In this document: positions 1,079 to 3,944 of the stretch, piece by piece | Numbering within the stretch: position 1 is the stretch's first letter | Layout: every line of letters starts with the position of its first letter | DNA from: an uncultured delta proteobacterium | GTDB taxonomy: Bacteria > Myxococcota > Myxococcia > Myxococcales > Myxococcaceae | Assembly: GCA_963771175.1 (NCBI GenBank) | Contig: CAVYSY010000024.1 | Span: 32,001-96,000, forward strand | Length of the DNA stretch: 64,000 nt | Reading direction: 5' to 3' | Translations under genes and position numbers: made by a program | The notes under the pieces: generated by a model | Seen by the model: only the letters and a program-made list of their open reading frames with translations | Databases searched by the model: none | Told to the model about the DNA's origin: nothing

Positions 1079-1233
1079 CGGGCACGCCTTTCGCCGTCTC
1101 TGGACGGGGCGCGGCACGGCGGGTGCTCCGGCGCGGCGCACGGCCTTGCTGGCCCCGGCAGCCGCCCTCCGCCTCCTCCCTTCTCCAGCCCGCCGCGCGC
1201 AGGAGGGCACGGGGAACTGGCCAAGGCTCCCCA

Positions 1234-1263
1234 TCGACAACGGCGGGACGAGGCCACCATAAT
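1234..1263 (+). promoter_or_regulatory. Putative sigma70-type promoter of cassette gene A, copy 1
   Basis: TCGACA-N18-CATAAT, 30 nt upstream of ATG 1294, identical in copy 2. Confidence 0.5.
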
Positions 1264-1293
1264 CTCCAGCCCCAACATCACCCCGAGGTTCGA

Positions 1294-1722
1294 ATGAGCG
1301 ATGGAACCGACATTGAGCAACTCGATGCCCCCCCGCCGATCTCCGCCGAGCTGCGCGCGAAGATCCTCGCGGACCCGAACGTGGCGAAGATGGCCGCGGA
1401 GCTCGAGATGGACCTCGACGAGTTCGTCAACACCGTCGGCTACTACATGAACAACCCGGGCGTGGAGCCCGCCTTCCTCGTCGTCAGCGACGAGAACCTG
1501 CGGAAGATGGGTGTCGAGCCGCCCACCGCCGAGGCCATCGAGGCCAACGTGCGCGCCAGCGTCGAGGCCATCAAGGCCGGCCAGGCTCCGAGCGGCTTCG
1601 ACGAGCCCCGCAAGAAGAACGTCGTGGACCTGGCTTCCCAGGGCGGCGCGGCCGTGAAAATCAACGCCGATCCTGGCCTCGAAGACGCGCTGAAGAAGGG
1701 CCGAACCTCGGTAAAGCCCTGA
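1294..1722 (+). CDS. Acidic 142-aa hypothetical protein (cassette gene A, copy 1)
   Basis: GAGG RBS before ATG 1294; strong GC3 bias; same start as copy 2 (ORF 2476..2904). Confidence 0.85.
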   Translation: MSDGTDIEQLDAPPPISAELRAKILADPNVAKMAAELEMDLDEFVNTVGYYMNNPGVEPAFLVVSDENLRKMGVEPPTAEAIEANVRASVEAIKAGQAPSGFDEPRKKNVVDLASQGGAAVKINADPGLEDALKKGRTSVKP

Positions 1723-1784
1723 TTCCACGGGACTTTTCAAAAAATCTTCGTCCCCAGGAAACATCCAGCCGCAGCCCGCGATAA
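1723..1784 (+). promoter_or_regulatory. Imperfect inverted repeat plus sigma28/FliA-like promoter upstream of gene B, copy 1
   Basis: TTCC-AC-GGGAC-N16-GTCCC-CA-GGAA (1723-1760); GAAA-N15-CGCGATAA (1758-1784) versus the FliA consensus TAAA-N15-GCCGATAA. Confidence 0.45.
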
Positions 1785-1830
1785 TCCCTTCAACTCAGTA
1801 ATTTTTCCTTTCTACACAAGAGAGTGCGCC

Positions 1831-2289
1831 ATGGGCTTTATCAAGGGCATCGGCAAGGCGTTCAAGAAGATCGGTAGCTTCGCCAAGAAGGCGGTCGGCT
1901 TCGCGAGCAAGATTCTCAACGGCCCCATCGGGAAGATCGCCTCGTTCATCCCGGGCGTTGGTCCCTTCATCGCGGGCGCCTCGAAGATTGTCGGCATCGC
2001 CAACGGCGTGCTCAACGGTGGTGGCCTCAAGGGCATCATCGGCGGCCTCGTCGACAGCTTCGGCGGCGGTCTGCTCGGCAAGGCCGGTTCGCTCCTGAGC
2101 AAGACGGGTCTCGGCTCCGTCATCGGCCTGGGCTCGCAGGCCAACAGCACCGGCGGCGTCCTCGACCTGGTCAAGGGCCTGATGAGCTCCCGCAAGAACG
2201 ACCAGTCCGCTGCCGCTCAGGGCGACAAGTACAACCTGAGCCAGTTCGCCGCCTTCAAGGTCGCCGACCTGCTCCGCGCCGCCGCCTGA
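1831..2289 (+). CDS. Gly/Lys-rich amphipathic 152-aa protein (cassette gene B, copy 1); candidate membrane-active or secreted protein
   Basis: MGFIKGIGKAFKKIGSFAKKAVGF N-terminus; ~20% Gly; GAGAG RBS; protein identical in copy 2. Confidence 0.88.
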   Translation: MGFIKGIGKAFKKIGSFAKKAVGFASKILNGPIGKIASFIPGVGPFIAGASKIVGIANGVLNGGGLKGIIGGLVDSFGGGLLGKAGSLLSKTGLGSVIGLGSQANSTGGVLDLVKGLMSSRKNDQSAAAQGDKYNLSQFAAFKVADLLRAAA

Positions 2290-2314
2290 TCGGCCCGCAT
2301 CCGCTCTACTCCAT

Positions 2315-2351
2315 GGGGTGCACGCTCTCTGGCGTGCACCCCTTTTTCTTT
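2315..2351 (+). terminator. Intrinsic terminator after gene B, copy 1
   Basis: GGGGTGCACGC-loop-GCGTGCACCCC followed by TTTTTCTTT. Confidence 0.9.
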
Positions 2352-2404
2352 CCTGCCACGGCCCACAGCGCCCGCCGTCACGGGGAAGTGGCCAAGACTC
2401 CCCA

Positions 2405-2434
2405 TCGACAACGGCGGGACGAGGCCACCATAAT
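2405..2434 (+). promoter_or_regulatory. Putative sigma70-type promoter of gene A, copy 2
   Basis: TCGACA-N18-CATAAT. Confidence 0.5.
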
Positions 2435-2475
2435 CTCCAGTCATTTCCAGTCCCAACATCACCCCCGAGGTTCGA

Positions 2476-2904
2476 ATGAGCGATGGAACCGACATTGAGC
2501 AACTCGATGCCCCCCCGCCGATCTCCGCCGAGCTGCGCGCGAAGATCCTCGCGGACCCGAACGTGGCGAAGATGGCCGCGGAGCTCGAGATGGACCTCGA
2601 CGAGTTCGTCAACACCGTCGGCTACTACATGAACAACCCGGGCGTGGAGCCCGCCTTCCTCGTCGTCAGCGACGAGAACCTGCGGAAGATGGGTGTCGAG
2701 CCGCCCACCGCCGAGGCCATCGAGGCCAACGTGCGCGCCAGCGTCGAGGCCATCAAGGCCGGCCAGGCTCCGAGCGGTTTCGACGAGCCCCGCAAGAAGA
2801 ACGTCGTGGACCTGGCTTCCCAGGGCGGCGAGGCCGTGAAAATCAACGCCGATCCTGGCCTCGAAGACGCGCTGAAGAAGGGCCGAACCTCGGTAAAGCC
2901 CTGA
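2476..2904 (+). CDS. Acidic 142-aa hypothetical protein (gene A, copy 2)
   Basis: Differs from copy 1 by one residue (GGAA vs GGEA). Confidence 0.85.
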   Translation: MSDGTDIEQLDAPPPISAELRAKILADPNVAKMAAELEMDLDEFVNTVGYYMNNPGVEPAFLVVSDENLRKMGVEPPTAEAIEANVRASVEAIKAGQAPSGFDEPRKKNVVDLASQGGEAVKINADPGLEDALKKGRTSVKP

Positions 2905-2966
2905 TTCCACGGGACTTTTCAAAAAATCTTCGTCCCCAGGAAACATCCAGCCGCTGCCCTCGATAA
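2905..2966 (+). promoter_or_regulatory. Inverted repeat plus sigma28-like promoter, copy 2
   Basis: Same inverted repeat; GAAA-N15-CTCGATAA (2940-2966). Confidence 0.45.
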
Positions 2967-3023
2967 TCCGTTCAAAGCAGCAACTTCAACCCCCGCAATT
3001 TTCCACACACGAGAGAGTTCGCC

Positions 3024-3482
3024 ATGGGCTTTATCAAGGGCATCGGCAAGGCGTTCAAGAAGATCGGTAGCTTCGCCAAGAAGGCGGTCGGCTTCGCGAG
3101 CAAGATTCTCAACGGCCCCATCGGGAAGATCGCCTCGTTCATCCCGGGCGTTGGTCCCTTCATCGCGGGCGCCTCGAAGATTGTTGGCATCGCCAACGGC
3201 GTGCTCAACGGTGGTGGCCTCAAGGGCATCATCGGCGGCCTCGTCGACAGCTTCGGTGGCGGCCTGCTCGGCAAGGCCGGTTCTCTCCTGAGCAAGACGG
3301 GCCTCGGCTCCGTCATCGGCCTGGGCTCGCAGGCCAACAGCACCGGCGGCGTCCTCGACCTGGTCAAGGGTCTGATGAGCTCCCGCAAGAACGACCAGTC
3401 CGCTGCCGCTCAGGGCGACAAGTACAACCTGAGCCAGTTCGCCGCCTTCAAGGTCGCCGACCTGCTCCGCGCCGCCGCCTGA
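3024..3482 (+). CDS. Gly/Lys-rich amphipathic 152-aa protein (gene B, copy 2)
   Basis: Identical protein to 1831..2289, only synonymous DNA differences. Confidence 0.88.
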   Translation: MGFIKGIGKAFKKIGSFAKKAVGFASKILNGPIGKIASFIPGVGPFIAGASKIVGIANGVLNGGGLKGIIGGLVDSFGGGLLGKAGSLLSKTGLGSVIGLGSQANSTGGVLDLVKGLMSSRKNDQSAAAQGDKYNLSQFAAFKVADLLRAAA

Positions 3483-3507
3483 TCGGCCCGAATCCGCTCC
3501 ACTTCTT

Positions 3508-3544
3508 GGGGTGCACGCTCTCGGGCGTGCACCCCTTTTTCTTT
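3508..3544 (+). terminator. Intrinsic terminator after gene B, copy 2
   Basis: Same 11-bp stem with a different loop, then a T tract. Confidence 0.9.
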
Positions 3545-3944
3545 CCTGCCCCTGCCCACAGCTCCAAGTCCCCTGCCGCGCCCCTCCTGGGAGAGCGGCC
3601 TGGGCCGGCGAAGTGAACCTCCTCCGCCTCCTGTCCGTGAACAGCCCCACCTGGGCGAGCAGGTCCGCCGTCCAGGTGCGCGTGCCGTCGGTGCAGCTCT
3701 TCACCCCCCGTGTGTGAGTACGTGAGCGGGCTCTCCAGCGTGAGTGCTCAGCGTGCGCGAGGCGCAGGCGGCGGCTCGAGCGCCAGCAGGTGACCAGGCC
3801 TGACGAGCTGGACCAGGAATCATTCCGCACCCTCTCTCACTTCCTGGCCTGAGCGGGGCCACTCCTGGACTGGCCTGGCCAGGAAGCCTTACCAGTCCAC
3901 ACAGGTTGTCTGAGGTGTCCCCAGTAGCCGTCACCTGGAGTCCA

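Follow-up and report, generated by a model that had tools for sequence, protein, structure and literature searches.

Acidic and cationic proteins encoded by a tandemly duplicated myxobacterial gene pair are predicted to form a heterodimer

In type III substrate-chaperone pairs, the N-terminus of the substrate is left free, while the rest of the chain is bound by its partner. Other described systems that come close to the locus considered here are toxin-antidote pairs, magainin/cecropin-type peptides and leaderless bacteriocins, PspA/IM30-type envelope-stress effectors, and type VII heterodimers. Within myxobacteria, a needle-less type III secretion system (T3SS*) is described as conserved, and the factors by which T3SS* and the Kil machine kill are stated to be unknown, in the available part of PMC10433427. 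We analyzed a 64-kb window (69.4% G+C), the whole stretch of DNA under study, from contig CAVYSY010000024.1 of an uncultured member of the Myxococcaceae, and focused on two small genes near its start, A and B, which encode an acidic and a basic protein, respectively. A and B are two halves of one clade-specific module. We suggest, tentatively and with somewhat less than even confidence, that A is a dedicated holdase or antidote for B, a latent membrane-inserting cationic protein.

The module is present in the window as two tandem copies of one unit, each of ~1.17-1.19 kb (pairwise alignment of the units, direct repeats; Table 1). The first-pass annotation of this DNA had placed a duplicated two-gene module at 1208..3562 and had taken each copy to be self-contained; the copies indeed align over 1208 to ~3565, and each has a sigma-70-type promoter, a motif upstream of B, and a terminator. 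As read from the sequence, the layout of a unit is, in order, promoter, gene A, a second promoter-like motif, gene B, and a strong terminator. The two B genes differ at 6 of 459 nt, all of which are synonymous third positions, and the two A genes at 2 of 429 nt, one synonymous and one giving the change A119E, where the glutamate carried by copy 2 is the family consensus. Divergence between the units is found mostly in both 5' leaders, including 10- and 11-nt indels. Because of these nucleotide differences, the two copies are distinct sequences rather than an assembly echo, and because the copy differences are largely synonymous, selection acts on the plus-strand frames of the module. All four A/B genes are intact. 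We also collected 44 related loci from a scan of one genome per species, with flanks of up to 10 kb per side. There was no second A-B copy within any of these flanks, and, judged against the 44 loci, the tandem duplication is specific to this window.

To describe the pairing of the two genes, we searched the 44 loci with both window proteins (tblastn). In 42 of the 43 evaluable loci, A immediately precedes B in the same orientation (42/44 overall; the sequence of L010 ends 78 nt before B, so the position of A is not evaluable there), which bears out the obligate linkage that the first-pass annotation had singled out for checking. The spacers between A and B are 71-129 nt long, and linkage is kept down to 53-57% identity for A and 56-60% for B (L037, L040, and L041). 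Each scanned genome has one A-B locus, and synteny is common within sub-clades only; after clustering of the flanking open reading frames (ORFs; n = 477), no neighbor was common to more than 7 loci. Compared with the other loci, the window has a median ratio of nonsynonymous to synonymous divergence (dN/dS) of 0.36 over 41 pairs in A and of 0.32 over 42 pairs in B. The distance matrices of A and B are correlated (Mantel r 0.81, a value that 0 of 2000 permutations reach), as expected for genes inherited as a unit, and the correlation is by itself no evidence of binding. With dN/dS of 0.32-0.36 and joint inheritance, the pair does not look like an arms-race toxin and its immunity protein. A-B is an autonomous, vertically inherited, and strongly constrained pair. 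We noted that synonymous divergence between genera is low among the closest dozen loci (from L001-L014; dS 0.16-0.39), perhaps because the genes are highly expressed and their codon usage is strongly biased.

The two proteins have opposite charges. A (pI 4.5) has net charges of -9.5 in copy 1 and -10.5 in copy 2, close to the earlier hand count of about -9, whereas B has a pI of 10.4 and a net charge of +12.5; charges are opposite in 41/41 A-B pairs (A, -4 to -13; B, +6 to +15). By count, the composition first given for B stands: 31 Gly in 152 residues (20.4%), 16 Lys, 2 Arg, 5 Asp, and no Glu, with IPGVGP at residues 40-45. The absence of acidic residues from the first ~74 positions is true of this sequence, in which D75 is the first, but not of the family, where the first acidic residue lies at a median position of 59 and a minimum of 16. 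The lytic-helix-like alternation of lysines and hydrophobic residues pointed out at the start of B was confirmed: residues 2-24 have a hydrophobic moment of 0.57 versus 0.21 in shuffles, reached by 0.06% of 5000 shuffles, and an amphipathic, cationic N-terminus (net +2 to +5) is kept in 41/41 aligned family members. Mean column identity is 90% over the core (residues 17-100) and 73% over the first 16 residues. Since amphipathicity and charge are kept there at lower identity, the N-terminal 16 residues probably have a physico-chemical role such as lipid binding. Lysines recur every 3-4 residues through residue 35, with no Cys and no RR motif, and sequence inspection, with no dedicated predictor run, revealed no Sec-, Tat-, or lipoprotein-type N-terminus in B. 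Hydrophobicity averaged over 19 residues (KD19) is 0.29-0.38 for windows beginning at residues 1-19 and is highest, at 1.47, for residues 39-57; of 14 distant B homologs, 6 score 1.6-1.95 over the equivalent segment.

A and B are also predicted to bind each other. AlphaFold2 single-chain models, built on 41-row alignments, gave a helical A, whose per-residue confidence (pLDDT) averages 62 and peaks over residues 11-50; B came out all-helical but ill-defined, at a pLDDT of 53.7. In three co-folding runs, A and B together scored an interface confidence (ipSAE) of 0.88, 0.88, and 0.51, as against 0.00 for the highest-scoring of 3 controls. Of 157 solved complexes, 116 reach the pass mark for co-folding, as do 2 of 215 mismatched pairs. 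The runs have at least 29% of contacts in common, with a partner pLDDT of at least 42 overall. In the two good runs, the pLDDT of B is 83-84, which compares only loosely with its value alone because the methods differ. The predicted interface joins residues 5-97 of A to residues 17-149 of B (248-274 contacts involving 61 residues of A and 78 of B), leaving B 1-16 and the charged tail of A (98-142) free, and the contacts of lowest error are those of A 44-52/61 with the C-terminal helix of B (135-145). The interface holds an excess of positions conserved at 90% or above (odds ratio 4.9 and p 1e-5 for A; odds ratio 2.0 and p 0.03 for B), an enrichment that is not fully independent of the prediction because the model saw the alignments. 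The models thus support the partnership of A with B put forward in the first-pass annotation (ipSAE 0.88 versus 0.00 for the control), and A and B very probably form a heterodimer, predicted to be helical and 1:1, with most of B covered by A.

Each gene of the pair has its own promoter-like signal, and in both of these bipartite motifs the boxes are kept while the spacer sequence varies (noncoding alignments of all loci, several genera). The sigma-70-type motif of A, TCGACA-N18-CATAAT, occurs at 2 sites in the window versus 0.2 expected. In the form TCGACA-N17-18-(C/G)ATA(A/C)T, it lies upstream of A in 25 of 43 regions, and these are all 25 occurrences in 732 kb, both strands. The strict motif of B, G(C/A)AAC(A/T/C)(T/C)-N14-15-CGA(T/G)AA, is found in 30 of 44 A-B spacers, and a relaxed form (AAC-N15-18-(C/G)GAnAA) in 41 of 44; the strict motif has 33 occurrences in 732 kb versus 0.5 in shuffles, and 30 of the 33 are within A-B spacers. 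An A/T-rich tract just before the B motif is a possible UP-like element. Promoters of the extracytoplasmic function (ECF) type in M. xanthus have a -35 AAC, a spacer of ~14-18 bp, and a -10 CGT, according to the available parts of PMC6061681 and PMC3107203. The B motif has the AAC -35 and ECF-like spacing in 41/44 spacers, with a -10 CGA that differs from CGT. A sigma-28 (FliA/WhiG) promoter has a -35 TAAA and a -10 GCCGATAA, as given in the available part of PMC8325347; by eye, the -10 box of B agrees with it at 6-7 of 8 positions, and the -35 is G(C/A)AAC in place of TAAA. Because it combines an ECF-like -35 with a CGA, sigma-28-like -10, we term the B motif alternative-sigma-type and assign it to no class. 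A sigma-54 promoter was considered and ruled out by eye, with no match to GG-N10-GC. Between A and B we found no significant terminator or structured RNA (fold z -0.6 to -1.4 versus shuffles), and because no hairpin comparable to that after B separates the genes, transcripts from the A promoter probably run into B.

The regulatory signals vary at a few loci. At L021, L031, and L041, A begins 10-15 nt past the stop codon of a glutaminyl-tRNA synthetase gene, with which it is probably co-transcribed, as judged from this arrangement; the TCGACA/ATACT promoter is absent, and the B-specific motif is kept in its relaxed form. Archangium lansingense has an extra B-type motif ~150 nt upstream of A (L007:9291-9317). 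Isolated B-type motifs lie at L041:2206-2233 and at L042:13429-13455; the latter stands before an ORF with no family match, and the gene after that ORF encodes a trigger-factor C-terminal domain. With only 3 occurrences of the B motif outside the spacers in 732 kb and uninformative downstream genes, no other regulon members emerged.

Taken together, these features fit a soluble-to-membrane switch, given the free cationic N-terminus and poor solo folding of B, its Gly-rich hydrophobic core, which is transmembrane-like in distant homologs, and an acidic partner predicted to bury most of B. We propose that A, a cytoplasmic protein, would keep B soluble and inactive. Once an alternative sigma factor fires, B would be in excess of A, or A would be recycled or removed, and free B would then engage an anionic membrane, using its N-terminal in-plane cationic helix and, subsequently, its Gly-rich hydrophobic segment. 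Additional transcription of B alone, started at the second motif, would shift the ratio toward free B, and tandem duplication would double the dosage of the module. Judged from its sequence, B may be a held-in-check membrane-attacking protein; a role as a secreted toxin finds no support in its genomic context.

Several observations weigh against this proposal. First, the KD19 of 1.47 in the window's B sits under the usual transmembrane threshold, and GxxxG is not enriched (7 observed versus 6.1 in composition shuffles), so that the Gly-zipper-like stretches described earlier do not rise above composition. Many non-membrane proteins also contain amphipathic cationic helices. Second, ipSAE is the model's own confidence, obtained here from unpaired alignments, and one of the three runs gave 0.51. 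Third, one locus (L044) has B without an upstream A and with a divergent MarR-family gene there instead (L044:5976-7110), although this B is itself cut by the contig end after 44 residues. Lastly, on the regulatory side, the motif patterns were built from the same sequences in which they were counted, so the counts show specificity and not independent discovery; the -10 of the B motif reads CGA (CGATAA or CGAGAA) and not the CGT on which mapped M. xanthus ECF promoters crucially depend; and at three loci (L021, L031, and L041) A abuts the upstream gene and has no promoter of its own.

The first of these points would suit a soluble structural or regulatory heterodimer whose chains fold jointly into a helical bundle, like other obligate two-chain proteins, and that stays in the cytoplasm, has no role at membranes, and owes the antimicrobial-peptide look of B to chance. 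We consider this improbable. It would account for the very large predicted interface, for a core (residues 17-100) whose 90% identity suggests a packed fold rather than a lipid-facing surface, and for the lack of any segment in the window's B that passes the transmembrane threshold. It would leave unexplained an N-terminus of ~16 residues that is outside the predicted interface and is amphipathic and cationic in 41/41 members despite an identity of 0.73, as well as the clearly hydrophobic segment of distant homologs. Separate promoter elements for each chain would also be unusual for an obligate 1:1 complex.

Neither protein belongs to a named family, as had been thought from the sequence. There was no match to A or B in Pfam or NCBIfam (for B, none in Pfam at E up to 10) or in PADLOC, and nothing significant in PHROGs, where the best match (E 0.0076) was to the Gly-rich part of an endolysin family. 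Searches of Protein Data Bank (PDB) sequence profiles gave no significant relative of either protein (best for A, E 0.25). Foldseek against the PDB returned best E values of 0.9 and 0.97 for the A and B models, which are of low confidence (pLDDT 62 for A), and all matches of A to helix-turn-helix and antitoxin folds had E > 1. In the ESM Atlas, B retrieved only its own kind of cluster, and A had no usable match. No paper naming the locus tags of six homologs was found in a literature search, nor any relevant paper on Archangium with an amphipathic cationic protein or chaperone. Both A and B are therefore true orphans in family, fold, and literature alike.

In a word-seeded search covering 5.8 billion proteins and lengths of 0.55-1.75 times the query, we recovered 155 relatives of B and 212 of A (225 with a profile). 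Among the best 120 of these 155, 212, and 225 matches, from which names and taxa are taken, every source name is "hypothetical protein" except for one "phage-related protein," a label that the weak PHROGs endolysin match probably explains. The named organisms in this list are Archangium, Hyalangium, and Vitiosangium, plus myxobacterial metagenome bins, and one A match is labeled Pyxidicoccus xibeiensis. When 1.84 billion cluster representatives were searched with a HMMER profile of B, no more than 21 clusters came up at E up to 0.001, and 8 of these at 1e-10. Distant members are ~135-200 aa long and mostly strongly basic; their Met-Gly or Met-Ser start leads into an amphipathic stretch rich in Lys, after which comes a hydrophobic Gly-rich segment. 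Because distant profile members share this length, N-terminus, and Gly-rich segment, we regard the B family, on sequence grounds, as real, small, and uncharacterized. Pfam searches with 15 distant B homologs (E up to 1) gave nothing significant and no PspA_IM30; 3 of the 15 had non-significant matches (E 0.56-0.72) to the PspC transmembrane model.

Two longer proteins came up in these searches. The sole long match, P0082 (261 aa), was considered as a natural A-B fusion and rejected; it is a C-terminal frame-shifted read-through of B. P0259 (298 aa), from a lower-G+C organism, has a segment closely like B residues 2-100 that starts at about residue 106, and its N-terminal region before that segment is rich in Gln, Asn, and Thr and then has a Lys run. 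This protein hints that a B-like region can serve as a domain of a larger one.

The lack of matches also bears on whether A-B is a type II-like toxin-antitoxin or abortive-infection module, with A as a labile antitoxin and B as a membrane-depolarizing toxin freed when A is degraded. We hold this to be highly improbable. In its favor, the antidote gene would precede the toxin gene, tight binding is predicted between two small proteins, and the pair has a variable genomic context with a self-contained promoter and terminator. However, there is no match to a toxin-antitoxin family in PADLOC or Pfam, and none to B in phage and plasmid collections (tblastn). The single locus in each scanned genome and the sub-clade synteny are not those of a mobile, patchy, or multi-copy element, and sequence conservation across genera is high. 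In place of translational coupling there is a 71-129-nt spacer with an internal promoter motif. Finally, since A is very acidic (pI 4.5), DNA binding and autoregulation by A, as by an autoregulating antitoxin, are unlikely.

We also considered a function outside the producing cell, in which B is an exported antagonistic effector and A its recycled secretion chaperone. B would leave by a Sec-independent route, e.g., the needle-less T3SS* or a Kil/Tad-like machine, with its first ~16 residues as the signal, and would permeabilize the membranes of prey or competitors. This reading is unlikely. It is consistent with the lack of a Sec-, Tat-, or lipoprotein-type N-terminus in B by sequence, with a small and acidic A, with the resemblance of the B -10 box to the flagellar sigma-28 box, and with the predicted complex, in which B 1-16 are free, B 17-149 are bound, and the best contacts are on the C-terminal helix. 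The genes around the pair argue otherwise. The 64-kb window has housekeeping-type genes only, with no secretion apparatus, exporter, or sigma gene by A-B, and Pfam analysis of 126 flank ORFs from the 44 loci revealed mixed metabolic, regulatory, and envelope genes with no type III, type VI, Tad, sigma factor, or dedicated bacteriocin exporter gene. The exceptions, each in a single sub-clade, are a generic ABC ATPase (L004) and an MFS transporter (L005). A link to type III-like secretion, FliA, or predation, which the first-pass annotation had drawn, thus found no support within the window or in the flanks of the 44 loci. In addition, the pair is named in few genera among the matches listed, whereas T3SS* is described, in the part of the source available, as conserved across myxobacteria; A fits no chaperone family or fold; and purifying selection and single-locus inheritance suit a counter-selected weapon poorly. 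We regard as quite improbable the narrower proposal that A-B is a lineage-specific effector and chaperone of contact-dependent killing, with B, a membrane-breaching protein kept by its chaperone, delivered independently of Sec via the needle-less T3SS* or Kil. Overall, what the first-pass annotation had observed is confirmed, and its interpretation is partly supported.

Returning to A as a holdase or antidote for a latent B, we lean slightly toward the inner membrane of the producer as the first target of B, whether in controlled lysis or in a response to envelope stress, rather than toward export against other cells. An inward action is favored by the lack of linked export machinery, the ECF-like -35, and purifying selection. 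An outward action is favored by the free N-terminus and clamped C-terminal helix of B in the predicted complex, the sigma-28-like -10, a predatory lifestyle, and the cargo of Kil and T3SS*, given as unknown in PMC10433427. The pair is an orphan, yet it is strongly conserved and obligately paired, and footprinted regulatory signals of its own accompany it. In the confidently predicted heterodimer, an acidic chain buries a cationic one that is amphipathic and rich in Gly, and this arrangement gives a hypothesis for a membrane effector of a new, "held-in-check" kind among bacteria that are social predators. Should B act inward, the module would be a new envelope-stress or controlled-lysis switch under an alternative sigma factor; if outward, it would bear on what myxobacteria deliver to prey at contact sites, and, were contact-dependent killing its function, B would be the first identified cargo of T3SS*/Kil, from a family with no known relatives. 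In either direction, the N-terminal segment of B is a candidate natural membrane-active peptide scaffold.

Table 1. Coordinates of the two A-B units and their parts within the window
Feature	Position	Strand	Basis or properties
Tandem repeat unit 1	1208..2372 (end approximate)	+	pairwise alignment, direct repeats
Sigma-70-type promoter of A, copy 1	1234..1263	+	TCGACA-N18-CATAAT; scan, 10/12 matches
Gene A, copy 1 (A1)	1294..1722	+	142 aa; acidic, pI 4.5, helical
A/T-rich tract just before B promoter motif	1733..1749	+	sequence; similar tract in close relatives
Alternative-sigma-type motif of B, copy 1	1758..1784	+	GAAAC, spacer, CGATAA
Gene B, copy 1 (B1)	1831..2289	+	152 aa; basic, pI 10.4, 20% Gly, cationic amphipathic N-terminus, hydrophobic Gly-rich core
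Intrinsic terminator, copy 1	2315..2352 (2315..2342 in the scan)	+	12-bp G+C-rich stem and T tract, z -5.2; stem sequence conserved in relatives
Tandem repeat unit 2	2379..3565 (end approximate)	+	pairwise alignment, direct repeats
Sigma-70-type promoter of A, copy 2	2405..2434	+	TCGACA-N18-CATAAT; scan
Gene A, copy 2 (A2)	2476..2904	+	142 aa; A119E relative to copy 1
Alternative-sigma-type motif of B, copy 2	2940..2966	+	motif scan
Gene B, copy 2 (B2)	3024..3482	+	protein same as copy 1
Intrinsic terminator, copy 2	3508..3545 (3508..3535 in the scan)	+	12-bp G+C-rich stem and T tract

Long antisense ORFs overlie the whole module (793-1764, 1795-2946, and 2919-3830 on the minus strand; also 1812-2195 and 2972-3388). 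They have high third-position G+C, and their translations differ between the copies, whereas the plus-strand B proteins do not; they are composition artefacts of a kind usual at high G+C. An ORF filter chose an antisense frame over B in 7 related loci, and automatic annotation could be misled in the same way. In the window, the neighbors of the module include a DegT-type aminotransferase, an iron alcohol dehydrogenase, and a histidine kinase, among others, and a synteny check did not find these genes beside A-B in other loci. The DegT-type aminotransferase (3-356 and 311-1078, plus strand), a group-1 glycosyltransferase (7601-8471, minus strand), and a DUF6178 protein (10801-11539, minus strand) are apparently frame-shifted: their N- and C-terminal parts have high third-position G+C in different overlapping frames, and Pfam covers a part only. 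For a TrmFO/GidA-like gene at 23576-24406, the Pfam match is likewise partial and takes in the second half of the model alone. The frame-shifted genes reflect either assembly indel errors or pseudogenes. Elsewhere, in a metagenome bin, a polymorphic-toxin-type dual-specificity phosphatase domain (Tc-R-P, E 8.7e-12) is encoded ~3 kb upstream of A-B (L039:6528-7058); because it was seen only once, this neighbor is probably coincidental.

Finally, we compared A-B with the described systems named at the outset; all of these comparisons are analogies and not homology results. Type III substrate-chaperone pairs (in particular those with the small helical class III chaperones for flagellins and needle subunits) are like A-B in that a small acidic partner gene adjoins that of the client and, as in the predicted A-B complex, the client has a free N-terminus and a clamped C-terminal amphipathic helix. 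In A-B, the gene in the client's place, B, has an alternative-sigma-type motif with a sigma-28-like -10. Unlike these pairs, A has no sequence or fold match to CesT/SycE-like, tetratricopeptide repeat (TPR) LcrH-like, or FliS-like chaperones, and there are no type III genes nearby in 45 genomic contexts (the window and the 44 loci). In toxin-antidote pairs (type II toxin-antitoxin systems, or a bacteriocin or colicin with its acidic immunity protein), the antidote gene, like A, has a housekeeping-type promoter, and acidic A is likewise predicted to neutralize the adjoining basic B. A-B differs from them in having no family match and no lysis or export gene, in being neither mobile nor multi-copy, and in being under purifying selection.

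The first ~24 residues of B resemble magainin/cecropin-type peptides and leaderless bacteriocins in their Lys/hydrophobic periodicity and high hydrophobic moment, and B begins directly at Met-Gly and, like the leaderless bacteriocins, has no leader. In contrast to lytic peptides, whose whole product is ~20-70 aa, B is 152 aa long, with conservation that extends along the entire protein and is greatest in the core (residues 17-100), and A-B loci lack the adjacent dedicated ABC exporter or immunity membrane protein of leaderless bacteriocins. A literature search, judged from titles and the beginnings of abstracts, found no leaderless bacteriocin described in myxobacteria. PspA/IM30-type envelope-stress effectors share with B an N-terminal amphipathic helix that starts from Met-Gly and a stress-type promoter motif (ECF-like -35), and a soluble partner could hold such an effector inactive; B differs in being much shorter and Gly-rich, with no PspA_IM30 match. 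Type VII heterodimers (EsxA/EsxB and PE/PPE) belong to another phylum and secretion system, and A-B has no WXG, PE, or PPE match and no nearby secretion locus. Their likeness to A-B is in the design: neighboring genes encode two small helical proteins that, by prediction, fold well only as a pair, and one of the two is considered membrane-active.

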